The notes beneath the pieces are model-generated. The model did no database searches and had not been told where the DNA came from. It saw nothing but the letters and a program-made list of their open reading frames with translations. The position numbers were made by a program, and so were the translations under genes. From Callorhinchus milii (lineage: Eukaryota): a stretch of 64,000 bases of DNA. Every line of letters starts with the position of its first letter. The stretch's first letter is position 1. This document shows, one piece after another, positions 3,001 to 41,540 of this stretch. The stretch is from NCBI RefSeq assembly GCF_018977255.1, contig NW_024704749.1, positions 8,990,001 to 9,054,000 of the forward strand, written 5' to 3'.

Positions 3001-6000
3001 TTTAGGTTCAGGTGACAGCAGCTCAGCAGGCCTGGGAGTTTTCTCAGCTGCAGAATATAAAGAAGGAAAAGCAAAGAGAATTAGAAGAGGACGAAAATGG
3101 CCTACTGTTCACCTATACCCGTGAGGACGCATACAATAAGGTGCCTATTACACTGAATATGTCAAAGATTATTTTCAGTTTAAACCAGTGGAGCTTGTTC
3201 CCGTCCCTATTCCCCCTGCGTTGTCTTGGCTCCTGTACTTAATGTGGCTGTTTCACTCTTAACAATCACAAACTGCCAAAAATCATATATGTTCTGATGA
3301 TCGCGGGTTGCTCAAACACTTGTACAGCACTTTGAATGTCACTTTTTGTAGTTCATCTGTTGAAAAAGTGGCTCTAAGCCACCCGATTGATGCAACTCTG
3401 GCACAGACTTGGTTAAACAAGAGGAGAATACGTTTATTACAAGATTTGGGATTAATAAGCAATCATGTTGGTGGAAAATAAAACGTCGTACATTATAATT
3501 CTTGTTTCTTTTTCTACATAAAGGAATATGTGAATGAAGGTGCAGATGGACAGAATGAAACAATGCCTGTGAGTTTTGGCGCAAATACACTTTTAAAAAT
3601 AAATGCAAGGATGTATAGAATTACTTGGGTTCTATATTAACTTCTGTCTGTGGTAGATTTGGACTCCTCCAACTCCGCCTCAGGATGACAATGACATCTA
3701 TATGGATCCAGTCATGTGCCTAATGTACGAGACAACAGCTATTGCAGAATCTAAACTTCCTCCGGTGTATGTCCGCAAGGAACACAAGAGACTAAAGCTG
3801 GACGCCTCTGGTGAGTAACATTTCCTTTAACTTAGGGGTTTTACAGCCAGAACTGCTTTACTCAATGATAAAACCATGAACCTAAAAATGATTCGTTCAC
3901 TTTATAATAATAATAATAATCCTTGCATTTGATATAGCGCTTTTCACGTCGGGAGGACGTCCCAAAGCGCTTCACAGAACACACTGTAAAGTGAATTGAC
4001 TGTATATTTGTGGGCGAACGCGGCAGCCAATTGCGCACAGCAATGTCCCACAAACAGTCGTAGATTGAAAATGACCAGTTTTTATTATTGTTTTGGGTTT
4101 TGGAGGGATTATTATTAGGCTCTGTGTGGAGTAAGGAAACTTGCCCAAGGTTTTGCCCTGACCTGCCTGGAATTGAACTCAGGTCTCTCGCTTGCAAAGC
4201 GAGTGCTCTAACCACTGAGCTATAGGACTCCACACTTAGTGTGGTTTCTCAAGAATAGCTGCCGTAATTAGAACAGACGTTTGCAACAACTACTCTGTTA
4301 AAGCGCCCTTCAACGTAATACTTCCTTGCTGTAGATCTACATGCATTAATTGACATCTCCAATGCATGAGGCATGAGGCAACAGCTACTGTGCCTCAGTC
4401 TACTGCTCAATACACCCAGGCTCCAGCTCTGACCGTCCAGCTTTCTGAACTAAAAAAAAATAGCTGACGTCTGATCTTTGAGTCGCGTGATGGGGCGGGG
4501 CGGGGGAGAGTTGGGGGTGGGCTGACTGTCACTGAATAGTATCGGACATCTTGGTTTCATTTGCAAAAAAAGAGAAAATTATACTAAAAATAATATTTTG
4601 GGTACTCAGATGACGTGACTTGCGAACCTGCAAAAAGTGAGACGAGGTGTATTTATTCTGTCAATGTAGCTGCTGGGAAGAAGTTCAAGAAAGCTCGACA
4701 TGGCGAGGCAGTGTCCCCTCCACGCTCACTGTTTGACAGGGCAGCACCCTGTATACTGAAGATGCGGCGGGAGGCGAAGGATCAGAAGAAGAACATGTTC
4801 CTGAAACAGCAGGCGCCGTTTGCAAAGCCTCTGCCATCGTTCAGCAAGCAAACTGTGGATGGAGGGCAGGACAGCCCCGAGTGGCTGATCAGTGAGGACT
4901 GGGCATTATTGCAGGTAATTCATCAACACACGTTATCCTTCAAGAACCTTCTCAAGACCCTCCTCTTCGACTTCTTTGGGCCTTCAGTCACCCTCTTATC
5001 TCCTACCCTCCTTCCCCCGCCCTCCACCCCACCTGATCCCAACCACCAACTCGGGTGTGGATCCTTGACTATCCAACGCCTTGGGACACCCTCTTGACGT
5101 GAAAGGCGCTATACGGATGTAATTTGTTGTTATTGTTGATGCAGAAAAAAGTGGATATATCATTGAATTTAACGTTGTAATTGAAATGTCTGCTGCTGCT
5201 GTTGTTGTCAGGCTGTAAAGCAGTTACTGGAGTTGCCTCTGAGCCTCGCCATCATCTCCCCCGCACACACACCCAACTGGGACCTCGTCAGTGATGTTGT
5301 GAACTCCTGCAGTCACATCTATCGCTCACCTAAACAATGTCGGAACCGATATGAGAATGTCATCATCCCAAGAGAAGAAGGAAAGGTACATGACCCTGGA
5401 ACTAGCTACAGATGCATTCATTGTCCAGTACATTCTGAGATAACTGTAATGTTTTATTGACTCCCACCTTAATTTAGAATTTTTCACAATTTATATCGCT
5501 TATATGTTTTGACTTTCGACATTGAGCAAATCAGTGGAGCATTTCCTATCTATTTATTTATTTGCAGTTGATATATGATGCTAATCCAAAGAAGAAAACA
5601 AAAAGCATTTACAAGGTAATTGCAAATGTATTCATTGTTGACCCTCAAATAACCATTTACTTGAATAAGGTACAAATCATAAACTTAAAGGGTATCTTTT
5701 TTTCTCAGACTAAAAACAGTCGTCCACTGCGAACTAGCCAGATCTACGCACAGGACGAGAGCGCAATGCATACGCAACGTTTCACAAGCCATTTCGAGCT
5801 GGTGAAGCTTATCGCTGGCAAAAGAAGTCCACCGATCAAACCTATGTAAGTGTTCTTCACGCTACGGTGAAAATGTTTGGTACTTTGAAGACAGTAAGCC
5901 CCACGGTGCGCCCCACACAAAGCTTATTGGAACATGTCACAAACCCCCTAAAATGACAACTTCCCGGTCAAATGTAACAACTCCACCAACACATTGCATT

Positions 6001-9000
6001 TACACAGCGCCTTTCATCTCGGGAGGACGTCCCAAGGCGCTGGACAGTAGAGGGTTTGCACCTGAGCTGGGGGCTGGATTTGAAAGGGGTTGGGGATCTG
6101 AAAGCACCTTGGAGAGGAAAGGGAGGTTGGAGATGGGATGGTAGATAAGGAGGAGAGAAGGATCAAGGCTAGCTTTTTTGAAGATGCGGGTTATGGCAGC
6201 TGCTTTTAAGCGGATGGGAACTGTGCCCGTAGGCAGAGAAAGATTAGCAATGTTCAAATACAGTTCAAATATGCTGCTTTGCGAGTGAATGTTGCAGATA
6301 GGTGCAAGAGATCCTCCCATCAATCCTCCCATCAGTCCACGTACTTAAATTGATATGTTCCATCATTTCTGTTGGATCTTCAAACAAACTTGTTCTGTTT
6401 TCTAGGCTCGGTATGAATCCTTTCCAGAAAAATCCAAAGAATGCGTCAGTGTTAGCTGAGAGGTCTGTAACCAGTGCATTTTATTGGTACTGTCGATTTC
6501 ATCATTGATTTGATTTTGTTCTGCCCGTTACCTGAAAACCAAAGTAACCAACTGTTGGAATGTTTTCACTGTTTTCTAGTGGAATCAATTATGATAAGCC
6601 ATTGACTCCAATCCAGGTGGCATCACTTCGAGCTGAACGTATTGCAAAGGAAAAAAAGGTTTGAGTTTGAAAGTTTCTTGCATTTGTGGGAATTCTTTGA
6701 CAACCAACAGATTGAATCGGTTTTATGCCACTTTCGTCTGAATTATTCGTTGGTCATATGTACATGTTTTGTGTGTGAAGGTTTAATCTGGCTATTGCTG
6801 TCTTTGAGCCACTTTACGATTAAGTCATCAGCTGCAGATAATCATCGTATAATGTACACTTAGTTGTACTCTGAATGTTAGTGAATAATGTAGATCTTGT
6901 GGTTCAAAAATAATTCAAGTGACTTACTCGATTGTTGCAGCAAGGTGTGTGTGTGTAAGTTCTTCGGAAACTTATTTTGATTTGGAAACTCAAGTGAAAG
7001 TATGTCAGTTGCACTAAATGTGGCAATTATAATAATAATGATTATAACTTACAAATGAGAGCAGAACATTGAACATTCTTTTGGGCATGAAAGTAACATG
7101 CACTTACCCTTGTCCTGAGCCATTCAACTCCACACCGAGACAATGGTTTGTGTGTCATCCGAATAAGCCACAATGTACAAGTTCACGTTCGGGGAACGAT
7201 TCCTTATGTGAGGCCACATTGAAATTAAATTTGCTTTCAAAGTTTTGTGGATGCATTGAAATGTTTTCTAATTTGTTTGATTCAAGGCTTTGGCAGAGCA
7301 ACAGAGAGCGCAGCAGCTCGCTCAGCAACAAGCTCAGCAGAACACACAGCCAGCCGTGCAACAGCAGCAGCCCCAGCAGCAAGCACAGCCGCAGGCAGTA
7401 GTGCAGCCTGCTGCAGCTACTGTTGCAAACACTGCGGTGCTGGTACAAACTTTTTTACTTGACTTCTCTGCTAGGATTTTACCTGGGTGCTGGGAGAAAG
7501 AATTTTTTTTATATATAGTTGTACGTTAGCTAAATTGGATAAATAATCTTTGCAATCAGGGATCCAACAGCACAGTAAAACTCGCATGAGTCTCATCTAT
7601 ATAAATCGTACGATTGCCTAAGTCATACGTGTACTCAAGTTCCCATTCAGTTTCCTACCAAAAACCACTTAGATTTCTCTGCACTAGTCGTATTTTATAA
7701 AGAAACTCTTAACTCATAACGCCGCTCTCCTGTCCTCCATTAGGCTGCCTTGAATAGCGGGAAATTAAGTTCTAACCTGTCGAACCGTGCACACTTACCG
7801 GCTGCATTGAATTAAGCTTGTGCAGTGTAGATTATTGATTAAAATCGGATTTTAAAGAACTTGTGCAAGCTTCTCCCAGCGCCTCCCCTTTCCTTACTTG
7901 AATTGATTTACATTAATTCGTCAGCGTTTTAAGTAATATATGATGGTTTACCTTGTGCTAAGTCGCAGTTTGTCTTTTGTACTAAACCAAATTATGTTTA
8001 TTGTGATCTTAAAGCAGACTGGAGCCATTAAGACAGCAGCTGGTACAGCAAACATACAGACTGGTAAGCAACACAATTCAAAAGATTTTATTTAGCAGAT
8101 CAATATAATTACTTTTCTGTACACTTACACCAATTTTGTATTCCAGCTACAGTGAGCGGCAATGTTATAGTCAATACAGCCACAGGAATACAACAAAGTA
8201 CCTTTCAGCCTATTAACAAACGAATCACACAGCCAGTTATTCCCGGGACACTAACAGTAAGTAAAATAATATGTGACAGTAACTATACCATATTTAATGT
8301 AATATCTACAAGCAAATTTTCTGAAATACAGGACAGGTTAGTTAGTGGCTCAGAAATAGTAAAATTGTTTGTCAGAGTACACGTTATTCATTTTTTTATG
8401 TATAAAAAGAACTACATAGAACCTCAGCAATGTACGACATAGTAGTTTGAAGTCTCTACCGAAAAGAGGAAGAAACTTTGTTTCCTGACCGAAAGGAAAG
8501 TCAGTTTCCTGACCGACAGGTCAGGGTGTCCTGACCGACAATCCCCCAATTAAATTTGGTCATTCATTTGGTGGCTGTCTGTGGGACACTGCTGTGCGCA
8601 ATTGGGCTTCCGGGTTTGCCTGGAAATACACAGTCAATCCACTTCACCATATATCCTGTGAAGCACTTTGAGACTTCTCAATGACGTGATAAAGCTCATC
8701 CAATGCAAGGATTATTATATAACCAGCAGCACTTTTGGACTTTGAATGCAGAGAGAGGACATAGCTGCAATAAAATATTATTAAATCACTGCTTAAAGTT
8801 GTTGGAAATCTCAGTTTAACTCCGAAATACTAAAATATGACTTTTGACAAACTCCCGGGTGTAGAAATAGTGTGTTGCATTAATATTGCTGCTGTTTATC
8901 CAGACTGCAGGAGGTACAGCTGCCCAGGTAGTGCATGGACAGCAGAGAACTGTTCCCACATCTGCTGCTACAGAAGTTGTGGCCATAGCAACCAACCAGG

Positions 9001-12000
9001 GGGTCCGAGCTGCCATAACTCCAGTTACAGCAGCTGTGGTATCCACGAGCCTGTCTCCCGCACAGTCCCAGACCAGGTCACTGGTGACACAAGTTACACC
9101 AGGTAAAGTGCCATGTTTTCTCAGGTGATGAGTTACAACTAATATTCTGTCCTGCCATGTGACATTGTATTGTACATTTAGTCAAAGCCCTTTAGTTCAG
9201 CGGTACTTGTCATAATCTCCACTTGCTTGCTGTCTGCTGGAATACACTGCATCTCGACCCACCACAATGTCTTCCTGTCGGGAGGCTATTCCAGCACATC
9301 AATACCTGTCCTCAATCAGTTGAGTTAAGAGTAGCTGAGGGGTGGGTGATGCACATCGACAGCTCCCCAGGTCACCTACGCCCACTTTACAGACAGGACT
9401 GTTAGTATCTAAAGCAAATAAGATGAATATGTGGTTCTCGAATCCTGAGGTGAACCCGGGGAAATAGCTTGACTTCCGTTGGAGGGATTTATGATAATAA
9501 TCCATCATAGGCTCGGCTACAAATAGTCACTGCACATTACGGGAACTTCGCAAAGCACTTTAAAATATTCTCGACGTTACAAGAGTTATACCAAAAAAGC
9601 AAGGAGTTATTTTATGTTGTTACATTATTTTCCGTTCACCACAATTCTCAGGTTTGGCCCTTTGTTCCTCATGAAATAAAGCAAAAGGTGCCTGATACTA
9701 GGTCATTCAAGCAATAGGAAATAGCTAGACATTTCAAATATTGATCAGAGTCCTAATGTTGTGTAGAACTTACTAAGATTCTCATTCAACTTTACTTAAG
9801 TGTCTTTCGAATCTCATGTTCACACTGTTGCCGCTTGTTCCAGTCACAGCCAACAGCGTCCAGCTCACCACGGGAAAGTCTATCGCTCAGGCACAAATCC
9901 AGCTCTTCAGACAACAAACGCCTCAGGTGCAGGTTCAGCAAATCCAGTCCCAATCCCAGACCCCGCTAAAGACGATGCAGAAATTACAGCCGGTAAGATA
10001 TTTTACCCACAAGATATACCGTCAATTCACTTTATTCCACCAGGCGCTTTGGCACATCTCGAAGACGCGATAAGGCTCTGTATCAAGTGCGAGAATTGTT
10101 ATATATTATTAAACCTGTCAGCTTTCGAGTACAGTGATTCTAAAGATTCCATATGCTACCAAACCCAATTGTCAATTATTACCAAAATCAACTTTTGTAA
10201 CTTTCATTTAACAACAATGAGTGTGAACTCATCAATGATTCATTGTCAGTCAGTGGTATCCATCCTCAACCTAGCTACCCTACCATTTTATAAAAAGGTG
10301 GTAAGTTGCACAAAGGATCTCCTTGACGACAGTTATGCTGAATTGCTAAGGATAGCAATCTTTCTGTCGCTGTCTTCATGGTGGGAAGTAGCCAAAAAAG
10401 ATATACTGCTCTTAGCAATCGTATTTCAGTGATCGCCTGAGTGATAATTGCCATCGCTATTTCTGTTATAAATGTTTCTGTAAACCAGTCTCATTCCATT
10501 TTATTTTTGTCTCAGGAACAGTTGTTGAAATTCAAACAGAAGCAGCAGCAGCAACAAGTAACTCAGAGAGGCCCAATGCAGACCGGCACAGTAGCAAACA
10601 TCCCAGTTGCTCGGATCGTAAGTTGCATCAATATGATTACCTTTGTCAAGCACTAGACCAAAAAGTGATATGATAATACACACCCCAATAAGGAATCATT
10701 CACATGCAAGCTAGTAACAACAATGTGCACAGCAAAGAGAAAACTGATGATCTGGACTATTGGGAGAATGGAGATGCTGTGCTCCAAGCTGGAGCCTTGA
10801 GCAGGAACACTGATGTTTGTTGCACCGTGTGTATTTAGATGCATTAATTGGAGGTCAGTTCTGAGTAGATGCCACTGGCTTTCACTTGTGTAATAATATA
10901 ATAGTAAAGGATGCGTGGTGAGGCTGGGCGTTGTTGCAGAATCGTCTGATGCAGAGTCTTGTACTGCCCTTGAAAAGAAGCTGGAAGGTGTTCAAGTTCC
11001 TTATTCAAGGTGGGATTTGTGCTCCAGGTCCAAAATCCGCATAAGGATCGAAAGGGTTCTCCCCACCCTGTCGTACATGCACGCTGGGAAGATGGGCGAA
11101 CACTGGCTCTTGTCCTGGATGTGTGATTCCTTTCTCCGCAGGCTCGCGTTCCTACATCGCAGCTTCAAACTCAGACACAGCCAGCCTCGACCACACAAGT
11201 GACACTCGCCAAGCCCTCCGTCGTGCCTGTACCTGCAGGCGTCGTACCGTCTGGAGTAACAACGCTCCCGGTTACTGTCGCTGGGATTAGTGTGGCTATT
11301 GCTCAGCCCCAGAAAGGAACACCTGGTAAATACCACTTGCATAGAAGGTTTGGAATGCTTCGTCCATGACACCTCATTTGCTCGGGCAAAGTCTGTCAGC
11401 TGCTGTGGTTCGCCGCATTAATGGGGGGGGGTCTGTGATTGAAATTGGGAGACTTGTTACTGTGGATACGTTGGCTGGACATCATCCTCTAATTCTCTCT
11501 CACAGTTAGGGAGAAACTGCTTGTGTTATTCACACAGAAACCACACGTGTTGAAGGGAGAAAATGGTTCATTTTTTTTGCTCATGTCATTTGCTTGATCA
11601 GAAGTTGAAAGATAACTGATTGAAGTCTACCGTTGCTGAAGTGAAGCTCTTGAGCCGGATTGATGCACATTGATGCACCATCACGCTGTTGGCCCAGGGA
11701 TGATATCTCCTGATTGTTTTCCAGGTGTACCGGCAGGGGTGAAGACCCATAACTTTCCATCCAAGCAAGTGCAGCACCTTCTCATGGTGAAGCAGCAGCA
11801 AACAGCCGGGTCCCAGCCGGGACAAGCAGCCAGAGCCACCCAGCAGAAGGTAATCCCTTGAGAGAAGTGCTTGTTACACTTGTCTTATTAAGCTGCTCTT
11901 TCTTGATTTCGAGTCCTGCAGCTCGGTGGTTAGAGCACTCGCCTCGTAAGCGAGAGGACCTGGGTTGGATTCTGGGCCGGGGCAAAACACTGGGCAAGTT

Positions 12001-14589
12001 TCCTTACTTTCACACACCTCTGTTTACCGCGCAGCAAGTAGGAACCCGGTTGTTAGTCGATTTGCGGATCGCTTTTCTGAGGGTAATAATGCCTTCCAAA
12101 AAAATAATAATTTGATCACTCAATCCACGATTGTTTGTGGGACGCTGCTGTGCGTAATTGGCTGCCGCGTTTCGCCCACAAAATATACAGTCACTACACT
12201 TTACAGTATATTCTGTAAAGCACGTTGAGACATCTCGAAGACGTGATAAGGCACTATATCAAATATAAGGATTATTATTATTTATATTTTAAAATGTTTT
12301 ACTTTTTACTTCTTCCCCTCTTGTTTCCATTTAGAAAAATGCCTTGCTTTAAGATGCCAAGTTTGCAACTGTACAGTTGCAGATTTCATTATGACTGGAA
12401 CTAAGTCTTACAAGTGGTGCTGAGATTTTCTCTTTCTTTGCTTGGGTAGTGGGGACGCGGTTAGGTGACAAGATGTTGACAATCTCACTTACCCATTTAT
12501 ATTCACACTATCTGTGAAAGGATCCAACGGCAGATGCTGAGGTCAGAGCTCTCAAACTGTAGAGTGAAAGAGTTTGATGAAGGAGCTACACATGTTTTTC
12601 TTACTTGCCGACTATTTCAGATAACTGGCCAACCCCAACAACAGCAGAAAGTCACTTACGCACCACCTACTCAGCTCCAGCAAGGCCTCAAGCCGCAGTT
12701 CCTGAGCGTTGCACAGCCACAAAAGCAGAGTGGATCACAACCGATGCAGACGCAGATTCAGGTAAAATATGTTGCGAAAGTTATGTGCTAGCTTTGTCGA
12801 GACTGGTTTTCTTTTCTTATCTATGTGTATAAAATGTAGGCGAGTTGAAGGAGTATAAGATTAAAAACTTTAAAAATGGAGATACGATACCCGAGTTTGG
12901 GAAAACAACGGGGAAATAGGATTAGAGTAGATAGCTCCAGTGATAAGAGATGGTGAATATCATGTGTATATCAAATACTTCAACACGTGAACCCGACAAA
13001 ATTATTCCGCTGTGAAAGTTGAATGCTTTGTTGCCTTTGATTTGAGCAGTGAATGTCACGTCCTGTCACAATTCTAGAGTCACGGATGATGTAGATGGAA
13101 CAAAAACATTCACAACACTCGGAAGGGATCCTCATACTTATAATTTAATTATCTTCCCTGGACACAGATGCACAGGTCCATTAAGGGCACAGACTTAAAT
13201 ATCAATTTCATTTTGTTTGTTTTTTAATTGACTAAAGGTTCAGAGTTAACATAAACTTACCTTGTTCAATAGGTTACAAAGCTTCCACAGATGGTACAAC
13301 AAGCTGCTGTGGGAAATATCCAGCAGATGGTATCCACGGCACAACAGGTAAATTTCATCTGGTTTCTGGCACACGAAAACAATAGATGTTTGCGGATAGG
13401 GGGTGCAGTCTGTTGTAGTCTAAGCTGTGTGTCAGCCTGGCGCAGTGGTAGCACTCTCACCTTTGAATCAGAAGGTTGTGGGTTCAAGCCTCCAATGTCA
13501 GGACTTGAAATCACATACATTATTGAGTCCTGTAGCTCTGGTTAGAGCACTTACCTCGTGAGCGAGAGGACCTGGGTTCGATTCCCGGGAGGGCGAAACA
13601 TTAGGCAGGTTTCCTTATTCCACATGCCTCTGTTTACCTAGCAGTAAGTAGGAACCCAGTTGTTGGTCGATTGGTAGATTGCTTTTTCTTAAAAAAATAA
13701 TAAATTGGTCACTCACTTCACGACTGTTTGTGGGACGCTGCTGTGTGCAATTGGCTGCCGTGTTTCGCTCACAAAATATATAGTCAATTCACTTTACAGT
13801 ATATTCTGTGAAGCGCTTTGAGACGTCTCGAAGGCGTGATATGGTGCTGTATCAAATACAAGGATAATATTATTATTTTGAATGCAGTGCTGGGGGGATG
13901 TTGGGTGGTCAGAGGTGCCGTCCTTCAGATGAGGTCCCGTCTGACTGCGGACGTTAAAGATTCAATGACACTATTCAAAAAAAAGAAGAGTTTCTCTCTC
14001 CCGGTGTCCTGGTCAACAAATCCCCCAAATAAAATTGGTCACTCACCCCATGGCTGTTTGGGGGACACTGCTGCGCGCAGCTGGCTGTCACATTTCTCCC
14101 ACAAAATACAGCGACTCCACTTTATAGTATATCCTGTGAAACACTTTGAGATGTCTCAATGACATGATAAGGGGCTTTATGAAATGCAAGGATTATTATT
14201 ATTTATTGTTAAATAGCTGTGAAGTAAATAATCAAGTTTATGGATCAATGTTCTGAATTGGTTGACTCTATATCCCGAAGTACAGTACAATATATGGTTA
14301 GTTTATACCAAATGTGCCACCTTCTGTGTTTGTGTAGGGCCCTACGTTGCCCCAAGGAACCACAGGGCAACAAGTTCAAGTGATTCCGACAACTGCAACT
14401 GCTCAGGTTGTGCAACAGCAACTCATTCAGCACCAGGTCGTAACAGCAGCCTCGCCTCAGATCCAGACACCACCTCCTCAAAGCCCCGCTCAAACAGCAA
14501 CACCCTCTGAAGTCCAAGGTCAGCAGGCAAAAGTGCAAGTGCGTACTACCCCTGCAGTGAGACTGAAAGCTCCAACAAAACCGAACTGA
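1..14589 (+). CDS. EP400: E1A-binding protein p400 (SWR1/Domino-family chromatin remodeller), 3' part; 5' end lies outside the window
   Basis: 25 GT-AG exons that join in phase: 1-173, 342-453, 1475-1615, 2250-2411, 2657-2740, 3006-3140, 3524-3568, 3657-3810, 4670-4914, 5212-5385, 5568-5615, 5709-5845, 6406-6462, 6580-6658, 7287-7442, 8018-8063, 8147-8256, 8904-9102, 9844-9992, 10516-10617, 11142-11325, 11725-11849, 12621-12761, 13273-13347, 14338-14589 (TGA). Translation gives helicase-C motifs (DADTVVVYD..WCDRIG..DIHIYRLVSGNSIEEKLL), WTPPTPPQDDNDIY, the SANT-like PEWLISEDWALLQ..PNWDLVSDVVNSCS..CRNRYE segment, GMNPFQKNPK and the C-terminus VRLKAPTKPN, all matching recalled human EP400. Confidence 0.97.
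1128..1443 (+). mobile_element. tRNA(Ala)-derived SINE, short form
   Basis: Head GTAGCTCAGTGGTTAGAGCACTCGCCTCGCAAGCGAG..GGTTCGATTCCC (A and B boxes), Deu-like core GCTGTGCGCAATTGGCTGCCGCGTTTCGCCCAC, tail AAATGCAAGGATTATTATT. Many copies in the window. Confidence 0.9.
3904..4231 (-). mobile_element. tRNA(Ala)-derived SINE, short form
   Basis: Full-length antisense copy, nearly identical to 25712-26025. Confidence 0.9.
11911..12282 (+). mobile_element. tRNA-derived SINE, long form
   Basis: Same head, core and tail, plus an internal segment TCTGTTTACC..AGTAGGAACCCGGTTGTTAGTCGA. Confidence 0.88.
13430..14202 (+). mobile_element. Older Deu-domain SINE (SacSINE1-like) split by a younger SINE at 13525-13877
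   Basis: Head GTCAGCCTGGCGCAGTGGTAGCACTCTCACCTTTGAATCAGAAGGTTGTGGGTTCAAGCC at 13430-13522; body resumes near 13880 (GAGGTGCCGTCCTTCAGATGAG..CCGGTGTCCTGG) and ends in the same ATT tail. Confidence 0.75.
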
Positions 14590-15175
14590 GCTTGTTGAGA
14601 GAAACTGGGAGCCCACCACTAAAAGAATGTGCTTGCAGCATTAGCTGGACTGTGCTAGAAACTAATTTGTTTTCACTCCATTGTGTAATAGCCAATGTAT
14701 AGGAAAAGCTGTCTATAAACTTAGTGTATATCATTTGATGAATTTTGGTGTGAATGTAACATGTTGATGCACAGCAGAAACTCTGTAAATCTTTAAAAAA
14801 AATCTAAGGTTAAACCCTAATCTCTTGTACATAGTATTTTCCTCCAGCGCATTTTTAATGGGCTGTTATATTTGTTAAATTCAGAAAGTAGATGTTCTAG
14901 ACAACATGAGTTCAGTATCTCTAAATGCATATTGTAGTTAGGTAAATGTTAAGTACTGAACTGTCTGCGAGTACTTTTTTCGGTAAAAAGAAAGAAGTCA
15001 ACTAGTCTTTCAAAATAAGTTGTTCGACGTTCCTTACCCGGAAAGAAATGTGGATGTTTATTAACAGAATTTTGATACAAGGTTTTGTATTTTTGTTACA
15101 TTCTCTTCATTGTGCATTCATGGTTCAGGTTTTGTTTTAAAGTAGTAATGTTTATTAATCTGTATGTATATGCAC

Positions 15176-15181
15176 ATTAAA
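15176..15181 (+). terminator. Candidate EP400 polyadenylation signal (ATTAAA)
   Basis: ATTAAA about 590 nt after the stop codon, ending an AT-rich 3' UTR and followed by T-rich sequence. Confidence 0.45.
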
Positions 15182-15769
15182 CATGAAAACTATGCTACAA
15201 CGTCATTTCTTCTTCTCATTTTTGAGTTTACATGTTAAAAAGTATTTTTTGCAGAACCTCTTCGTATTCTTGAATATGTCTTGTATTACGATCAGCAAAG
15301 TCATATGGAGCTGGTCATCCAACTCCCAAGATCTTTGCAGGTTTTATTTGTAGATTTTTTTCCCCCGATCTTTGGTATTTTGTTTTACGCGATGTCATTC
15401 CATGATAGAGTAATGGAGCTGGGACATCAAAAGGCTCAAATTGAGACCAAAGAGAAGCTTGAGCTTCCAGGAAAAATGATTGCACCATAAATATCAAACA
15501 ATATTGTCAGAAATTGCTACTGCATTATTACAATATATCGGACCATGAGTTGTATCCACAAGCCCTGCCACGACATTGTAATGAATCAAAACCTGCTCTG
15601 AATAAGTGTTCATCGAGTATCTTTTGCGATGGGGTGGGCTTTTCTGGGAGAAATGTTCTCAATGAGGTTTACAAATTGGGGGGGGGGTCCTGTTACACTG
15701 CAGGTACATGGAGCTGCATCAAGGTCCCATCAACTGTTTTCCTGTCGTTAGGACACCGCTGTTGGAGTT

Positions 15770-16143
15770 CTCTTTGACCGTGCCTTCAGCTCCCCTCTCG
15801 ACTCTCTTCCCCCTCCTCGCTCCCTCCCTTCCCTCCCCTCACCCTGACCATTTCCCCCCTCCTTGCTCCCTCCCTTCCCTCCCCTCACCCTGACCATTTT
15901 CCCCCTCCTCGCTCCCTCCCTTCCCTCCCCTCACCCTGACCATTTCCCCCCTCCTCGCTCCCTCCCTTCCCTCCCCTCACCCTGACCATTTCCCCCCTCC
16001 TCGCTCCCTCCCTCCCCTCCCCTCCCCCTGACCATTTCCCCCCAATGCTCGGGTCATGACCCAACTGTGCAGCGCCTTGGGACGTCCTCCCGACGTGAAA
16101 GGCGCTTTATAAATGGAATCTTGTTGTTGTTGTTGTTGTTGTT
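15770..16143 (+). mobile_element. L2 LINE 3' end containing five 46-bp tandem units
   Basis: FDRAFSSPLDS-coding end, 46-bp units, stem-loop GCGCCTTGGGACGTCCTCCCGACGTGAAAGGCGC and (TTG)n tail. Confidence 0.85.
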
Positions 16144-16265
16144 GAGATTAAATAACGCAGGTCGCGTTCGACGGCAATCTTACCTGTCGTTAAAAATATT
16201 TTTAAAGCGTAAGCGTGCGGCCTTCGCTTCATGTAATGTACATATTGTTATCCCGGGTGTCTTTT

Positions 16266-16303
<38 letters not shown>

Positions 16304-16506
16304 TGTGCCATTCGTTGCTTCGCTGGTGCTGAGAATCGTTCCATTTGGATGTATTTCGCCCACGGAAAACACAGTCACTACACTTGACGGTGTATCCCGC
16401 CCAAGCGCTTCGGGACGCCTCGATGACGAGGCGCTGCAGCAAGCGTCAGGATGGCGGTGATGATGGTGGTGATGATGGTGAGAGCAGAGCAGCTGCTGAT
16501 CACAGG

Positions 16507-16588
16507 CACTTCCGGCCTCTGAGCCGGTGACGGAGGGTCGGGTCGTGACGTCAGTTCCGCAACGGCACGTGACCGGCAACATGGCGGC
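16507..16588 (+). promoter_or_regulatory. NOC4L CpG-rich proximal promoter
   Basis: ETS/GABP CACTTCCGG 16507-16515, CRE TGACGTCA 16546-16553, E-box CACGTG 16566-16571, and YY1-like AACATGGCGGC 16578-16588 overlapping the ATG. Confidence 0.7.
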
Positions 16589-19500
16589 GCCGAGTAAACT
16601 GCAGCGGCGGCTTCACGCGCTGTCGGCGTCGGTGCTCCACAACTGCCACAACTGCAACTCGGTGCTGGACATCCTGTGGCCTCTGAGGGTACCTGTCCCC
16701 CCCCCACCCCCGGGCCTCCCCGCCCACACCCCCCCCACCCCGGGCCTCCCCCCCCACCCCCACTCCCCCCCCCCCCACCCGGGCCTCCCCCCCACACCCC
16801 CCCACCCCGGGCCTCCCCCCCCCCACCCCGGGCCTCCCCCCCCACCCCACCCCCTCCCCCCCCCCACCCCGGGCCTGTCTCCCCCTCCCCCCCACACCCC
16901 CCCACCCCGGGCCTCCCCCCCCCACCCCGGGCCTGTCTCCCCCTCCCCCCCACTCCCCCCCCCCACCCCCGGGCCTCCCCCCCACACCCCCCCCACCCCG
17001 GGCCTCCCCACCCCCCACCCACCCCGGGCTCCACCCCCCCCAACCCCCCAGGCCTCCCCCCCACCTCAGGCCTGTCTCCCCCTCCCCCCCACACCCCCCC
17101 ACCCCGGGCCTCCCCACCCCCCCCCACCCCGGGCCTCCACCCCCCAACCCCCCAGGCCTCCCCCCACCTCAGGCCTGTCTCCCCTCCCCCCCACTCCCCC
17201 CCCCCCGGGCCTCCCCCCCACCCCACCCCCACTCCCCCCCCCCCCCCACCCACCCCGGGCCTCCCCCCCCCCCACCCCCGGGCCTCCCCCCCCACCCCCC
17301 ACCCCACTCCCCCCCCCCACCCCGGGCCTGTTCCCCCTCCCCCCACCCCCACCCCCACCCCGGGCCTCCCCCTCCCACCCCCACCCCCCCCACCCCCCGC
17401 CTGTCTCCCCCACTCCGCCTTTCTCATCTCTCCTCCCCACCCCCCGGCATGTCTTTCCTCTCCCCTCCCCCACCTGTGTCTCCCCCGTGCCCCCTCCTCC
17501 TGTATCTCCCCCCCCGCTGTGTCTCCCCCCCCTCCTCCTGTATCTCCCCCCCCCGCCTGTGTCTCCCCCCCCCCTCCTCCTGTATCTCCCCCCCCCCGCC
17601 TGTGTCTCCCCCCCCCCCTCCTCCTGTATCTCCCCCCCCCGCCTGTGTCTCCCCCCCCCCTCCTCCTGTATCTCCCCCCCCCGCCTGTATCTCCCCCCCC
17701 CCCTCCTCCTGTATCTCCCCCCCCCCCGCCTGTGTCTCCCCCCCCCCCGCCTGTGTCTCCCCCCCCCCCTCCTCCTGTATCTCCCCCCCCCCTCCTGTGT
17801 CTCCCCCCGTGCCCCCCCCCCCTCCCCCCCGGCCTATCCAGTGTAGAGCGAAAATCATAACGGGGGTCTTATCTCAGCAGAAATCTTCAGATAGAAAAAG
17901 TGCAGTTGTTCTTTTTTAAAAAAACAAAAAGGCCAAAAAAACACCGGTTTAGACGACCGCAAAATGTACAGTCGCCGATCCCATTGAGGGGTGGGGGGGG
18001 GGGGGAGGGGTGTCGTGTTGTTCAAGCACTTGTGTCACCTTTTGACGTATTAATTATTGGGTTATTAAATTGTTGTCATCAATACAGTCGGTCTGGTTCA
18101 CAACCGCTCAAGTCTATGTCTTGCATTCCCGTTAGGCCGAGAAGGAAGAAGCCGTTCTTGCCGCTGCAGGAACATGTCACGGGCTGTTCTGCACCCTATT
18201 GGAACGAGGGGCACTTTTTGTCGGTCAGTTGCCCGACGAGGAAACAGCTCTGACAGGTAATGAGCGGACGGATAGCTTTGCAGTCGATTTTACGAGTGCA
18301 ACTCGTCAGAGTGGAGCAGAGGGTGACGCGCAAAGGGTGGGGAGAGCAATTGTGTGGTCTCTGAGCCAGAGACCGCGTATCTTGTTGGGCTCCTGTGCAC
18401 ATTTCCTGAAGTAGATTCCTCCCTTCAACGAAGAGCCTGTGGCTCTACCAGTAATTTGTCAGCGCAGCAAGTGTTTATCAATGTTTTATCAGCAGGTTAT
18501 TCAAATTGGTTACCGTTAACACCGACCGGGGTTGGAAGGCTTATTTTTTCTGCTTGAATTCTGCGGTGTCGAGTTAAGGCCGTGATTTATTTTTTTTGTT
18601 GATTGACATTAGCACTCCTTCGAGTGCACTTGAATGACTGTGGGTGGAATATTGCTGTTCGCAATTTGGCAGCTGCATTCGCCCACAGATACAGTCGACG
18701 CACTTCACAGAAATGTCACGAAGCACTTGGTTACAGACGAGATATCAAATGCAAAGGATTATTATCATGTCGGAGCTATATTTTCACTTGTGTTTTTTAA
18801 TGTCTCCTGAATAAGAATTNNNNNNNNNNNNNNNNNNNNNNNNNTTCTCTCCCACCATCATGTGCTATTTGGTGCAATAGTGTTAACCCTAGCTCAACTT
18901 TCGTTAGCCTCACTCTTGGCAAGGGATGAAGTGTTTGGATGCCGTCATCACACATACTATTTTGGAGGAGAGATAGTTGAATATTTGCTGATGTGTAAAT
19001 ACTAAAGGTGCAAATGCTATTTCAGAGAATATCCAAACTTCTATAAAAAGCTCTACAGCTTGCTGAACCCATGTGTGTTCCACGTGAAGTACAGAGCAAG
19101 ATTCTTCCATCTAGCGGGTCTGTTTTTATCTTCCAGGTTAGTATTTCTTCATTTTATTTCCATCATTAACTGTAACAGCAGGTCTGATATTCATAAAGTA
19201 CAATATTCCAAATACACAAGTGGATAACGCTTGCTTTACAGAAAAGTACAATCATATGATAAAGTTTACCAACTAAGCAACAGTATTTCTTTTGCAATAC
19301 TAATTTCTGATACATCGCATCCTGCAATAATTTACTCACATACGTAGCGTTAGACTCGCCATTCAGTGGTGCAATGCTTACAAATACTGTAACAATAAGA
19401 TCCATTGATAATCTCTAGGATGCACTGACCTGTGGCTAAGCACCTTGGAGGCAGAGTTGGGTTCATAGAGTCTCTTTGCTGGCTTAAGACGCTGTGGCTG

Positions 19501-25711: not shown

Positions 25712-26025
25712 GGAGTCCTGTAGCTCAGTGGTTAGAGCACTCACTTTGCAAGCGAGAGACCTGAGTTCAATTCCAGGCAGAGGGCGAAACCTTGGGCAAG
25801 TTTTCTTACTCCACACAGAGCCTAATAGTAATCCCTCCAAAACCAAAAACAATAATAAATTGGTCATTTTTAATCTACGACTGTTTGTGGGACATTGCTG
25901 TGCGCAATTGGCTGCCGCGTTCGCCCACAAATATACAGGCAATTCACTTTACAGTGAAGCGCTTTGGGACGTCCTCCCGACGTGAAAAGCGCTATATCAA
26001 ATGCAAGGATTATTATTATTATTAT
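25712..26025 (+). mobile_element. tRNA(Ala)-derived SINE, short form
   Basis: Full length with A/B boxes, Deu-like core and (ATT)n tail. Confidence 0.9.
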
Positions 26026-30894: not shown

Positions 30895-31857
30895 ATGTTA
30901 ACTACTCCAGCCTCCTACGAAAATTATTCAGACTATCTGTTGGAGATGGACGATGATTCGATTGCTGTCCTGCCGCTCGTGATTTACTCTGTGACCTTTT
31001 TGGTCGGAATCTCTGGAAACGCTCTGGTCATCTGGATCGCAACGCAGGAAGTAAGAAAGACAATCACCATGATATGGCTTTTGAATCTGTCAGTGGCTGA
31101 CTTCATGTTCACCGCCCTCTTGCCTTTTTCCATTGTGTATCAAGTAGAAAAGTTCCATTGGCCGTTTGGAAGTTTTATGTGCAAATTCATTAGTTTCGGC
31201 GTCCATCTGAACATGTTCACAAGTGTGTTCATACTGACCGTAACCAGCATTGATAGATGCCTTTCTGTTGTATTTCCAGTTTGGTGTCAGAATAATCGAA
31301 GTGTAAATTCGGCAATTATCGTGTCATTAGTTGTGTGGGTACTGGCTGCTGTAGTAAGCGTTCCTTTCTACCTTATCCGTGACACAGAAGAGGACCTGAT
31401 AATGGGGACGACGTATTGCCTTTACAAACAGGATCTGCTTAACCTCCGTAGCTTAATACTGGCAAGATTTACGTTGGGTTTCGCTCTTCCTTTTATTACA
31501 ATTGCCATTTGCTACACTGTCATCACCTTAAAGATCAAACGTAGGTGGAGAAGGGTGTCAACCAAACAGTGCAAAATAATCACTATGATCATCTTAGCTT
31601 TTCTATTTTGTTGGATACCATTTCATATTTTGAGTATAATCCACATGTTATCAGACGTTGACATTAAAACCTGGCTGCCGCTGGCTACCAGCTTTGCATA
31701 TGTTTATAGCTGCATCAATCCGATTCTCTACCTTTTCGCTGGTAATGGATTTGTGCTTCAATTCAAGAAAAGAATCCAAGCAGCACTGAGGGCAATACAC
31801 GATGAAATGAGCCACAGTAGTTCCAGGTCTGAGTCCAGGGGGGGTCAAGGGATCTGA
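30895..31857 (+). CDS. Intronless class A GPCR of the chemoattractant receptor family (chemerin receptor CMKLR1-like; relatives GPR1, C3AR1, FPRs), 320 aa
   Basis: Seven hydrophobic segments. Motifs GNALVIW, WLLNLSVADF, HWPFGSFMCK, LNMFTSVFILTVTSIDRCLSVVFPVWCQNNR, RFTLGFALPF, CWIPFH, SCINPILY. Acidic, Tyr-rich N-terminus with an NYS sequon. Exact orthology cannot be assigned by eye. Confidence 0.92.
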   Translation: MLTTPASYENYSDYLLEMDDDSIAVLPLVIYSVTFLVGISGNALVIWIATQEVRKTITMIWLLNLSVADFMFTALLPFSIVYQVEKFHWPFGSFMCKFISFGVHLNMFTSVFILTVTSIDRCLSVVFPVWCQNNRSVNSAIIVSLVVWVLAAVVSVPFYLIRDTEEDLIMGTTYCLYKQDLLNLRSLILARFTLGFALPFITIAICYTVITLKIKRRWRRVSTKQCKIITMIILAFLFCWIPFHILSIIHMLSDVDIKTWLPLATSFAYVYSCINPILYLFAGNGFVLQFKKRIQAALRAIHDEMSHSSSRSESRGGQGI

Positions 31858-37005: not shown

Positions 37006-38837
37006 GATGGTGCCGTTAGAATTCAAAACTTTATTTTTCTGCAACGGTTTGTACAAACCTTCTTAAATGCTCCGTGCCTTCAATACAACGTGTGCTGGGT
37101 ATTTCTTTGCCTCTGTCCTGTATGCACCCCCCCCCCCGCCCTTTCTCTGTCTCTCTCACACTCGCTCGCTCCCTCCCTCCCTCAAGCACAGTATAATTTC
37201 ACTCTTTGCATGGAGCTTCCCTGCCATCCTGTGGCCAACCTGTGGTAATGTGACCGGATAAAACGTACATCTGCATCGGTCCCTCTGGTGGAAATGGGTA
37301 TTTTTGTCAATATAAAACGTGATCATGAGAATAATCCTTGCATTTGATCGTCCAACTGAACAGCCGGTTTCACGTGAGGTCCCGTAGCCAGATGAGGACC
37401 TGGGTTCGATTCCCGGGCACAGGGCGAAATGTTAGGCGAGTTTCCTTCCTCCGCCTGCCTCTGTTTACCGAGCAGTGAGTAGGAGCACGGTTGTTGGTCG
37501 AAATGGTGCATCACTTTTACAGGGCTAATAATCCCATCAACAAATAGACATCTTTCTGATGTGATAAAGTGTTATGCTAAATGCAAGGTTTATTAATATT
37601 ATTAGAGGGGCCGAGACTAACAGAGAGAGAGGGAGTAAAGAGAGAGACAGAAACTGGGGGCGAAAGCGAGCCTGATAGAGAGAGAGTGAGAAATAAAACT
37701 AAACAGATTGATGCTGCTTGTACTAATGCCTAATAATAACGTACTAACGGCTTTTGGCTATTTTTACCCATTCACACTACACCCCCCCCCGCCCCCCACC
37801 CCTCGGTCCCACAGTTCAGGGGCAAAGCTCTGATTGCCCAATGCCTTGGGACGTACTCCTCATTTGAAAGACGCCGTACAAATGTCAGTTTGTATTGTGC
37901 TTGTGTTACCCTCTGAACAAAGAAAAATGTTTTGCTATCTGCCCTTAATTAAACTCTACAACACTAAATCTAGAATCTCTTGTTTTATTGTCTTGGCGGA
38001 TCCTGAATTATTGATCTACGTTTACTCTCTCAATTGCAAAAATGTCTTGTCTCATCTCCCTAAGTACCTTGGGCTATAGTTTATCTTGGATTTCGCAGCA
38101 GTTTGGCAGGGAGAGTGCTTCGAGATGTTTCAACAGCGTGATAAAATGTCCTATCAAATGCACCGATTATCATTATTCTAAATATACCCTCTCCCACACC
38201 GTTCAATTAAATCCGCCTGTAACTCACTCCTCGCACTTGTTATTTCAATGTTATTCTGCATCACTATATCCTCGATTAGATCAACCTGTGCCTCAACTTC
38301 CATTATTCTGGGTATGCCTTTACCCCAACCTATGGGATAGGTTCCACACTCACTCCTTTCACCGCACTGGAACAGTTTTAAAGTGAAATGCTCATCTGGT
38401 GACCTTGTCCGGTTATTCTCCAGAGTTGCCGTTGCCTGTTTGTAGTTCGCTTGTTAACTAGAGTGTTCGGGCCGGTTTCTACTGCTGACGTGTTCCTGCC
38501 TTTGCGATGACTAAACATTTACCTGACCCTGAGAGAGAATTGTGGCAGGACACCTGTACAAGGGGACAACCCAATGCGGGTTACAGGTAACCCCAGGTAC
38601 CGTGGACACATTCTGGGTGCCTCTGGGGTGCAGTGTGTCCTGAACCGCCCCACCTGATCCACTAAACGACCTAATTCTAGGTATTTTGCCCGCTTCGGTT
38701 ACTGCAGACACTGAGGTGAGCACCTGATACCGATGAGCCCTGGTCTGACCCGGCTCCCCCCGCAGCGGTGGTCTGGTCGGGGCTGGTTATAAGGTAACCC
38801 TCGCTCGTGCTCGCGAGTATGTTGGGGTGGTGAAGAG

Positions 38838-41415
38838 ATGGCTTTGGTGCTGTGGTGCCTGGCGCTGATCCACTGCGGGATCGCAGGACAGAATGCGACT
38901 GAGGAGCAAACCCAGATAGCTCGCGGAAAACTAATCGTGAGTATATTGTGAAGTGAATTGGTCGGATATTTGTGGGCGAAACGCAGCAGCCGATTGCACA
39001 CCACAGTGTCTCACAAACAGCCGTGGATTGTATCTGTCTCACAAGTGTGAGTGTGAGACAGGTACAGTTAGAGACGATGATCTGGGATGAGATTACTGAG
39101 CACTTGGGCCAAACATAAATTAGCACAGATTTGTATAAGACAGATTGTGTTGAAGCAGCCTTCTGGAATTCTTTAAAATTCTTTCAACCGGGTTAAACCG
39201 AGGTCTGTCTATGTAAAAAAAAATTACTGCTGCTTGTCCAGCAGAACGACAATTATTATTATGCGTAACTGAAATAAGATTGACTCGCCTCTGGGTTCCT
39301 GCGCTATTTATACTTTGTTTTAATCGATCCCCCAGTGCCTTCGCCGCTTTCTCCCTTTCCTCCTTCAAGGCCGGTCTCAAGACCTTTCTCTTTGACCGAG
39401 CCTTCAGCTCCCCTCTCGACTCTCTACCCCCTCCTCGCTCCCTCCCTTCCCTGCCCTCACCCTGACCATTTGCCCCCTGCTCGGGTCCCGACCCAACTGT
39501 ACAGCGCCTTGGGACGTCCTCCCTTGTTGTTGTTGTTGTTGTTTGAACAGGGTGTGGCAGTTGCTCCAGCCTCCACTCTTCTGACTTTTCCACATCTCTC
39601 TGATTTCTCCCCTTGGCTATAAACCATGGGAGTCTCTGTCTCAGGCTCTGAAGGTCTCGCTCATGCTGTTTTTCAGGCTCCAAGTTTGGTCGGATGACCG
39701 ATCAAGAAGCAGCCGGAGCTGTACCAATTCCTAATGGAACGCCTGGCGCTATAGTATCCTCCCTGTGACTGAGCAGCTGGGACACACAGCCCGTGACGGG
39801 GGGGGCGGAGGTGGGTGACACAGTGTATGGTTGGTGCCCGATATGGGGTGGCATAAAGAATGAGGGCACGGGGTGTGGGGATCAGAAGGTGTGGGGGTGA
39901 GGGGACACAGTGTACGCCACTCTGTAAGGAAACCCAATCTGGGGACTCCAACCCCACGTGAAGGACGCTATATAAATGCAAGTTGTTGTTGTTGTTGTTG
40001 ATTGCTGTGCGCTTAAACTCCGTGAGGAAGCTGAGGACCGCCCGAAATGTCCAATACATGTGACCACTTTCGAGCGCACACTGGGCCCTGTGTGCGGGGG
40101 CTGTTTAGAGCCAACCCCGATCCTCACACCAAACACAACCCCAAAAATTAACTCCCAAATCCTAAAGGCACTAATAACATCTGAACTCGAAAAATAACCT
40201 AAATGTTATCCCAACCCCTAATATGGCCCTAATATCAGTACCAAACCCTAAACACAACATTAATATCAGCACAAACCCTAAACACTGTACTAACATCAAG
40301 TCCTTGTCTGCTCAGAGCCAACCTTCCCCTCGGCTGTGAGCAGTTACCCCTCTCCCTGGGCTATCTATCTATTTGCTTAACTTCACCTTCAGCCACAACA
40401 TGGAGTATGAGTCCCGGGAAGACGAGGAGCCACGGTTTGTTTTCTACAATGTGGAGCAGGAGGTGGTGAAGGTCAGTGTCCAGTCACATCAACAGCACAA
40501 CTGCCACCACACGTCCTGAGCAGCTCAGCCACCAGCTCCAGCAAGCAATNNNNNNNNNNNNNNNNNNNNNNNNNNNNNNNNNNNNNNNNNNNNNNNNNNN
40601 NNNNNNNNNNNNNNNNNNNNNNNNNNNNNNNNNNNNNNNNNNNNNNNNNNNNNNNNNNNNNNNNNNNNNNNNNNNNNNAAATACGAATGCGTGTGTGTAA
40701 ATATGTGCGTAAATGAGTGTAAATGTGTGTGTGTGTGTGTGTATAACTATGTTTTTAAATACACGTGTGTGTGTGTGTGTAAATGGGTATGGGGTTAAAT
40801 ACAGTTTACATTTATACAATGCCTTTTGTGTTGAGAGGAAATCTCAAAGGCTTCCCAGTGTTGTTGTTGGCCGAGGACCTGAGCTGGAGGACAAAAGCCA
40901 AAGGGGGCAGCGAGGGGATAGGTAATCGCGGTAAATGTGTGCGTCGGTGAGTCTATGTGTGTCTTTGTCTGTGTGTGTGCGTGTGTGTGTATTTATGTGA
41001 CTATGCGCGCGTGTGTGTGTGTCGAACTCATCCACCCCCATCTGTTGTTTAAGAGGCACCTCCTTCCCCGTCCCTTATTTCGCCCACAAATACACAGTCG
41101 CTACACTTTACGGTAGAGCCCGCGGAGCGCTTTGAGACGTCTCGAAGACCCGATAAGGCGCGGTATCAAATGCGAGGATTATTATTATTATGATTATTAT
41201 GATTATTAAGCAGTGATTTGCTGTGTGGTGTGTGTGTGTGTGTAAGAAACAAGTCCACCTTCCTCTCACAGGAAGAGCTGGTGCAGGGAATGAAGTTGGA
41301 AGAGATGTCTGCTCTGCTCGAGTCGCTGGGATTCTACAGGAAATCAGCCAAGGGCGAGGAGGTTCCTGAAGAATTCCGGCATTTCCCACTCCGAGCTGCT
41401 CGGGATGAGCTGTAG
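38838..41415 (+). CDS. SELENOE: Selenoprotein E / Fep15 (SELENOM/Sep15 family), 132 aa, Sec at residue 40
   Basis: Exons 38838-38936, 39677-39753, 40393-40471, 41272-41415 join in phase to give MALVLWCLALIHCGIAGQNATEEQTQIARGKLIAPSLVG-U-PIKKQPELYQFLMERLALYHNMEYESREDEEPRFVFYNVEQEVVKEELVQGMKLEEMSALLESLGFYRKSAKGEEVPEEFRHFPLRAARDEL*. In-frame TGA at 39695-39697, hydrophobic signal peptide, RDEL terminus, SECIS downstream. Closely resembles recalled teleost Fep15 (APSVVGU..FLMERWALYHNLEY..LGFYKRSQKGEEVPEEF..RDEL). Confidence 0.93.
39330..39543 (+). mobile_element. L2 LINE 3' fragment in SELENOE intron 1
   Basis: SLSSFKAGLKTFLFDRAFSSPLDS coding end, one 46-bp unit and (TTG)n tail. Confidence 0.85.
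39695..39697 (+). other. SELENOE: Selenocysteine codon (TGA)
   Basis: In frame within exon 2 (GTC GGA TGA CCG ATC), at the position of U in the SELENOM CGGU motif; homology continues after it. Confidence 0.9.
39754..40392 (+). other. Probable U12-type (minor spliceosome) GT-AG intron
   Basis: Donor GTATCCTC (U12 consensus GTATCCTT); branch-like TTTGCTTAAC at 40372-40381 about 12 nt before the AG; short pyrimidine tract. Confidence 0.8.
40550..40678. other. Assembly gap (129 N) in SELENOE intron 3
   Basis: Run of N. The flanking exons join in phase, so no coding exon needs to be hidden here. Confidence 0.99.
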
Positions 41416-41441: not shown

Positions 41442-41522
41442 GCTGGCAGGAAAGCGAGGATGATGTTAGTGTCTGAAAGGCGGTGACTCCCTGGCATTGG
41501 CGGAGAAGTTGCTTCCTGCAGC
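41442..41522 (+). promoter_or_regulatory. SECIS element (form 2) in the SELENOE 3' UTR
   Basis: Helix I GCAGGAA(A)GCGA / TTGCTTCCTGC; core ATGAT 41460-41464 / GGAG 41502-41505; helix II GTTAGTGTCTG / CTGGCATTGGC; apical AAA 41476-41478 plus mini-hairpin GGCG-GTGA-CTCC. Confidence 0.9.
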
Positions 41523-41534
41523 TGAGGTTCTCGT

Positions 41535-41540
41535 AATAAA
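41535..41540 (+). terminator. SELENOE polyadenylation signal (AATAAA)
   Basis: Canonical AATAAA 12 nt after the SECIS. Confidence 0.7.

Follow-up and report, generated by a model that had tools for sequence, protein, structure and literature searches.

SELENOE of Callorhinchus milii contains a predicted U12-type intron at a position very likely shared with SELENOM

We have analysed a stretch of 64,000 nucleotides from Callorhinchus milii (contig NW_024704749.1, positions 8,990,001 to 9,054,000), hereafter the window, in which coordinates are counted from its first letter. The 3' part of the EP400 gene occupies approximately positions 4600-18000 (+), with the segment 5212-5388 matching human p400 at an E-value of 2e-30. 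Further downstream lies a single-exon gene for a 320-aa GPCR (30895-31857, +), whose best PDB match was chemerin-like receptor 1 (E 2.3e-61), closely followed by the C5a and C3a receptors. The segment 33201-37005 (+) contains a glutathione S-transferase gene of five exons, all four introns of which are of the U2 type, and we take it to be of the theta class (GSTT). The Rfam scan gave five tRNA matches (at 1133, 4158, 13526, 25718 and 34270), those at 25718 and 34270 looking like the heads of a tRNA-derived SINE that is repeated across the window, and it detected no minor snRNA genes in the 64 kb. A GC-rich, strongly skewed low-complexity tract was seen at 16500-17900 (GC content of 0.69 in 16001-18000), as well as an assembly gap at 18820-18844.

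The gene under study, SELENOE (Fep15), consists of four exons with a 132-residue frame that contains a single in-frame TGA (codon 40) and ends in RDEL. Coding exon 1 (38838..38936, +; 99 nt, phase 0), whose end is in register with the exon ends of homologues, encodes a hydrophobic N-terminus that is likely a signal peptide. It is followed by the U2-type intron 1 (38937..39676, +), with the donor ATC/GTGAGT (7/9; the slash marks the exon end). Exon 2, the Sec exon (39677..39753, +; 77 nt), ends with the TA of a split Tyr codon and carries the TGA (39695..39697, +), predicted to encode Sec and aligned with a Cys in frog homologues. Exon 3 (40393..40471, +; 79 nt) opens with the last base of this Tyr codon, followed by HN. 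The U2-type intron 3 (40472..41271, +; AAG/GTCAGT, 8/9), which contains a 129-N assembly gap (40550-40678), precedes the coding part of exon 4 (41272..41415, +), which ends with the ER-retention-like RDEL and a TAG. This terminus and the hydrophobic N-terminus point to a predicted ER location. In the 3' UTR, a predicted SECIS hairpin (41446..41520, +) has its AUGA (41460), AAA (41476) and GA (41503) elements in register, and an AATAAA polyadenylation signal is present at 41535..41540 (+). The stability of the hairpin had a z-score of -2.53, with 3 of 200 shuffles being equally stable. Against Rfam SECIS_1 it reached 16.9 bits (E 0.96), short of the 35 set as the gathering score, and it was left unmatched in the Rfam scan of the window.

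The protein search with exon 4 retrieved 20 proteins at E <=0.001, the best being the horn shark "selenoprotein e" (73%). In a tree of 23 rows, the window protein grouped with 13 SELENOE proteins (support 100/99); this tree is unrooted, does not include SELENOF and came with a warning of long branches, so that it addresses neither the root nor a SELENOM sisterhood. The window protein was 51-65% identical to the 13 SELENOE proteins versus 30-35% to six fish SELENOM proteins. SELENOE homologues carry PF08806. The single exons of the window gene gave no Sep15_SelM match in Pfam, exon 3 gave no relevant match in the PDB search, and exon 4 had no homologue when searched against longer proteins. SELENOE is reported to have Sec in fishes and Cys in Anura and to be lost in amniotes (PMC13134290), a pattern that fits the alignment of the TGA with the frog Cys. 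By these features alone the host would be placed among the jawed fishes, the tree giving no closer position. The Sec of fishes and Cys of frogs, the lack of a second Cys before the Sec and the RDEL end are all as given for SELENOE/Fep15 in two surveys (PMC3316567; PMC13134290).

Intron 2 (39754..40392, +) is 639 nt long, of the GT-AG kind and in phase 2, splitting the Tyr codon (TA/C) of LALY/HN at the exon 2/exon 3 joint. Its ends were placed by protein homology, the horn shark selenoprotein e reading LALYHN. An alternative donor (an in-frame GT at 39721) and an alternative acceptor (an AC at 40386) were both rejected on account of residues lost or added relative to the homologue alignment. 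The 5' splice site GTATCCTCC (39754..39762, +) is preceded by an exonic ATA (ATA/GTATCCTCC) and matched the U12 consensus RTATCCT(T) at 7 of 8 positions, departing from it at +8 (C); its agreement with the U2 consensus was limited to 4 of 9. A U12-type branch motif, TTTGCTTAAC, is predicted from the sequence at 40372..40381 (+), in which TTGCTTAAC agrees with TTCCTTRAC at 8 of 9 positions, with the sole mismatch being a G where C is expected. The distance from the second branch A to the 3' end of the intron, whose AG lies at 40391..40392 (+), is 12 nt, and the spacer between the last C of the motif and the AG is 9 nt. Pyrimidines made up 15 of the 20 bases before the AG, a span that overlaps the branch motif (11-16 in six U2 controls). 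The initial annotation had proposed this same intron, with the branch about 12 nt from the AG and the Tyr codon split, and its coordinates proved exact. Inside the intron we have also observed G-runs at 39797-39816, a high-copy repeat remnant ending in (GTT)n (39951..40000, +) and degenerate AAACCCTAA-like repeats at 40140-40280, the latter unreported by Tandem Repeats Finder at score 30.

The two motifs are not enriched when counted separately: the window contains 5 GTATCCT against 5.73 expected, and 18 CTTAAC-N6-22-AG against 30.3 expected. The consensus patterns behind these counts, three in all, are general knowledge. Among GT sites, 5 of 7446 read GTATCCT, and 31 of 3669 YAG sites had a comparable branch motif at 9-16 nt, the intron 2 site being included in both numerators. 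The product of the two frequencies gives a joint chance of ~6e-6 for finding both motifs at the ends of a homology-fixed intron. When each GTATCCT was followed for up to 5 kb downstream, CTT[AG]AC plus YAG was found for the intron 2 donor only, out of the five sites. The element that exceeds chance is the motif pair at the two ends of a homology-fixed intron, not the motif counts. As controls we have used six introns, two of SELENOE and four of GSTT, whose donors matched the U2 consensus at 7-8 of 9 positions, compared with 2-4 of 8 for that of U12. The initial annotation had likewise given ordinary U2-type donors for the other introns that it mapped.

Turunen et al. (PMC3584512) characterise U12-type introns by the 5' site, the branch sequence, a branch distance of 11-13 nt and a 3' end that shows no distinct pyrimidine tract. 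Intron 2 has the U12-compatible GT...AG termini (GT-AG or AT-AC), the conserved 5' site and branch sequence of GT-AG introns of this class, and a distance within the 11-13 nt optimum. Its 3' end is fairly pyrimidine-rich, so that the lack of a distinct tract is not clear-cut, and both of its motifs are rarer variants. The minor-intron table that Olthof 2019 gives for human and mouse (PMC6717393) has 722 occurrences of GTATCCTT, 62 of GTATCCTC and 8 of GCTTAAC. The mouse Nedd1 donor ATA/GTATCCTTT has a score of 92.05 in this table, and other rows sharing this exonic triplet have similar scores whether they read CCTCC or CCTTT (PMC6717393); by these neighbouring rows, we infer that the intron 2 donor would score ~92. 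Branch 12-mers differing by one base from that of intron 2 score 78.6 and 83.2, with a cut-off of 65 (PMC6717393). The assignment of intron 2 to the U12 class, as claimed in the initial annotation, is thus supported by its sequence signals and by near-identical catalogued sites.

The counterpart in SELENOM, which the initial annotation had named, is indeed present in three published tables (PMC6717393, PMC6800510, PMC11347168). They list one U12 intron for human SELENOM (hg38 chr22:31105287-31105657, 371 nt) and one for mouse SelM (mm10 chr11:3516521-3516841, 321 nt). The human intron was retained in RNU4ATAC patients, with dPSI values of 0.03 (FDR 0.02) and 0.28 (FDR 4e-6) (PMC6800510), and after U12 or U6atac morpholinos (PMC11347168). 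Of the 9 human conditions, only 2 gave a positive response of the SELENOM intron, as did 1 of the 6 in mouse (PMC11347168), and siRNPC3 raised its value from 0.027 to 0.114 (p = 0.053; PMC12332006). Dependence on U12 is demonstrated for SELENOM and predicted from sequence for SELENOE.

We have also looked for SELENOE in sequencing runs and published data sets. Contigs over 38780-40545 came from 4 of 12 runs, in which repeats made up most of the depth. They left 40314-40431 without cover, and one X1 contig spans the intron 1/exon 2 border unspliced; neither observation is informative on splicing, and the same applies to the absence of the exon 2-3 joint among the 15 joints listed of 61 (4 runs). 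An X2 contig (39496-39980) has the donor unchanged, and X2 may be the source sample; this run has 6 extra letters after 39797. The zebrafish rnpc3-responsive sheet has neither a selenoe nor a selenom row, and selenoe was not found among the rows listed in the PMC12332006 supplement. The files searched of the PMC4066798 supplement gave no match, and the rows listed in the PMC13134290 supplement made no mention of U12 or Fep15. A U12 intron in SELENOE was not found described in our literature search, which returned mostly search listings. Selenoe may already be included in MIDB, in IAOD or in the data set of a 2026 zebrafish preprint (10.64898/2026.08.20.745718), which reports 743 U12 introns and 78 genes with such introns that lack a human orthologue.

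Removal of intron 2 by the minor spliceosome would proceed with U11 recognising GTATCCT and U12 base-pairing with the GCTTAAC branch motif. The AG 12 nt downstream would then be joined to the exonic TA, restoring the Tyr codon and opening the frame across the Sep15/SelM domain as far as the RDEL terminus, while the UGA at codon 40 would be decoded as Sec via the 3' SECIS. If the intron were kept, the exonic TA and the following G would form an in-frame TAG, 19 codons past the UGA. Two predicted U2-like cryptic donors with 7/9 matches lie within it, GAG/GTGGGT (39811..39816, +; 57 nt into the intron) and another at 39889 (+), whose use would also keep the TAG. The stop is in fact preserved by all seven U2-like donors (>=6/9) inside the intron, and skipping of exon 2 or exon 3 causes a frameshift. 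Hence, every product of retention or of cryptic U2 donor use would be truncated, and such products would likely be degraded by NMD. Full-length SELENOE would accordingly seem to need both minor splicing and SECIS-directed Sec insertion, a double need that is common to SELENOM too.

The initial annotation had stressed the adjacency of the intron to the Sec exon, for which a special significance is not supported. Among 12 fish SELENOM models with VKAF, six switch or skip exactly before VKAF. These breaks indicate that SELENOM has an additional intron between the Sec codon and Y/HN that is absent in SELENOE, in which the U12 intron consequently comes directly after the Sec exon. The adjacency thus appears to be a by-product of one intron lost in SELENOE or gained in SELENOM.

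[quoted passage not shown] We regard this as unlikely, a regulatory purpose of the placement being possible but unsupported. The immediate TAG met upon retention and with all seven cryptic donors would suit such a gate, but TA/G arises automatically wherever a GT intron interrupts a Tyr codon in phase 2, and does so in SELENOM likewise. The UGA lies 56 nt from the U12 donor, close to the NMD limit of 50-55 nt; however, the next exon junction, 135 nt past the UGA, would make NMD independent of intron 2. A rate-limiting role has been proposed for U12 introns (PMC3584512), and the SELENOM intron reached a dPSI of 0.28 in one patient data set (PMC6800510), yet SELENOM retains its intron without adjacency to the Sec exon. 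Moreover, a survey of >3000 genomes found neutral processes to account for much of minor-intron evolution (Larue and Roy, PMC10639083). It would be a long shot, in our opinion, to extend this into one scheme, with SELENOE arising at the base of the jawed vertebrates from a SELENOM copy duplicated locally, loss of the U2 intron by the Sec codon that brought the U12 donor near the UGA, and slow splicing, stop-trapped donors and selenium-dependent NMD acting as one gate. Our literature search did not find the selenoprotein hierarchy described as linked to the minor spliceosome.

The U12-like signals might otherwise be relics of a hybrid or partly converted intron, which the major spliceosome would splice wholly or partly via the pyrimidine-rich 3' end. 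Minor-to-major conversion is a recognised route, conversion being assumed to run almost only in this direction (Larue and Roy, PMC10639083), and the 15 pyrimidines before the AG, the single branch mismatch and the C at +8 would be in line with it. We find this quite improbable, as the donor falls below the six controls in its match to the U2 consensus, identical donor and branch variants occur among catalogued minor introns (PMC6717393), and all seven better U2-like donors inside the intron lead to a stop. The gene models of homologues would favour the hybrid reading in that predictors pair the orthologous acceptor with other donors.

Our junction survey, on the side of the minor-intron reading, covered 129 proteins, of which 65 had the exon 3 start motif and 64 were kept after dropping the SelM-like P0107. 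Homologous upstream sequence with [AG]LY-HN, like that of the window gene, was present in 52 of these 64 SELENOE-type proteins. Eleven (from teleosts, bichir and Xenopus) are mis-built models in which unrelated sequence switches into HN exactly at the junction, with S, F, N or C as the preceding residue, which is compatible with a phase-2 acceptor; the remaining one was ambiguous at the junction. The intron 2 acceptor is thus conserved across SELENOE homologues. This does not imply U12-type orthologous donors, because a predictor may leave the exon out on account of the UGA alone. Many public SELENOE models, those of the frog Cys homologues included, either have a wrong structure near the Sec exon or go under the name "selenoprotein M" or "M-like" (P0009, P0013, P0017, P0018, P0020, P0067-P0072, P0016-P0042).

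The reading of intron 2 as a minor intron can be carried further by comparing its site with that of SELENOM. The catalogued SELENOM donors are CTA/GTATCCTTC in human and GTA/GTATCCTTT in mouse (PMC6717393), and an exon end in TA is common to these and to the window SELENOE. Mouse SelM (PDB 2A2P) has QLYHN at the intron 2 site in a gap-free alignment, its GTA being consistent with a Leu-Tyr pair split after TA. Human SELENOM presumably has Phe-Tyr at the equivalent site, with which CTA is consistent. Further junctions visible in the fish SELENOM models come after Glu and would not supply a TA-ending donor, since no Glu codon ends in TA. The exonic TA and the gap-free alignment make it very likely that the SELENOM U12 intron is at the same codon as SELENOE intron 2. 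The FY/HN equivalence given in the initial annotation is, by this indirect evidence, likewise very likely. Besides the TA exon end, both introns have GT-AG termini, an xTA/GTATCCT donor and a TTAAC branch core, and both hosts are selenoproteins of the Sep15/SelM family, with an ER location that is predicted for SELENOE, whose sequences run gap-free across LY/HN. The SELENOE intron differs in its 639 nt, its repeat remnant, the C at +8 and the branch G, and it comes directly after the Sec exon, whereas fish SELENOM models have the extra intron before VKAF.

That the U12 intron is genuine but not homologous to that of SELENOM, lying at another SELENOM junction or having been gained independently, is very improbable: the shared position does depend on three exonic bases and an alignment, and 0 of 13 fish SELENOM models, a sample chosen by high score, break at Y/HN, but the TA exon end in all three donors, the Glu codons at the other junctions and the near one-way minor-to-major conversion (PMC10639083) make a fresh gain at the same codon hard to accept.

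With the intron taken as shared, the ancestry of SELENOE can be addressed, and the tree leaves this to other evidence. An origin of Fep15/SELENOE from SelM is said to have been proposed by Novoselov in 2006. The SELENOE profile, searched against the PDB at E up to 10, matched only SelM 2A2P (E 2.3e-12); a Sep15 structure is also present in the PDB. SELENOF is not known to have a U2 intron at the same codon. SELENOF had 0 matches in the human and mouse minor-intron tables of Olthof 2019 (PMC6717393), and its absence from the older table is weak, as the symbol SEP15 may be lost there to date conversion. The shared U12 intron would favour a descent of SELENOE with the SELENOM lineage rather than with SELENOF, without giving direction, date or mechanism. 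As to the origin by SELENOM duplication suggested in the initial annotation, common descent with SELENOM is supported, and direction and date do not follow. We take the EP400, CMKLR1-like and GSTT neighbours to correspond to human 12q23-24 and 22q11, derived with SELENOM (chr22) from one ancestral chromosome. Such a neighbour set would suggest that SELENOE arose by local duplication and not as a whole-genome ohnologue. For Mariotti 2012 (PMC3316567), the closest SELENOE homologue is Sep15, in which introns are partly conserved. In the 2026 survey (PMC13134290), SELENOE is described as "distantly related to SELENOF". Both surveys, in their accessible parts, are silent on the U12 intron and favour Sep15/SELENOF, in contrast to the window data, which favour SELENOM. 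Fep15 is dated to the vertebrate era, and SelM is present in invertebrates (Jiang 2012, PMC3473315).

Overall, we consider it highly probable that intron 2 of this fish SELENOE gene, with its 639 nt and GT-AG ends, carries U12-type signals at the donor and the branch, by which the minor spliceosome is predicted to remove it, and that it likely goes back to the common ancestor of SELENOE and SELENOM. It is very likely an ordinary inherited feature, a paralogous copy of the catalogued SELENOM intron, and no new kind of system, as published tables already record this dependence for SELENOM. Because gains of U12 introns are rare, sharing at the same codon is a good marker of ancestry, and the tie to SELENOM would be a modest correction to the wording of the two surveys (2012 and 2026; PMC3316567, PMC13134290). 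Intron 2 would also explain why many SELENOE gene models are mis-built, and with it SELENOE joins the genes that are likely to be hit when the minor spliceosome is defective in fish models.
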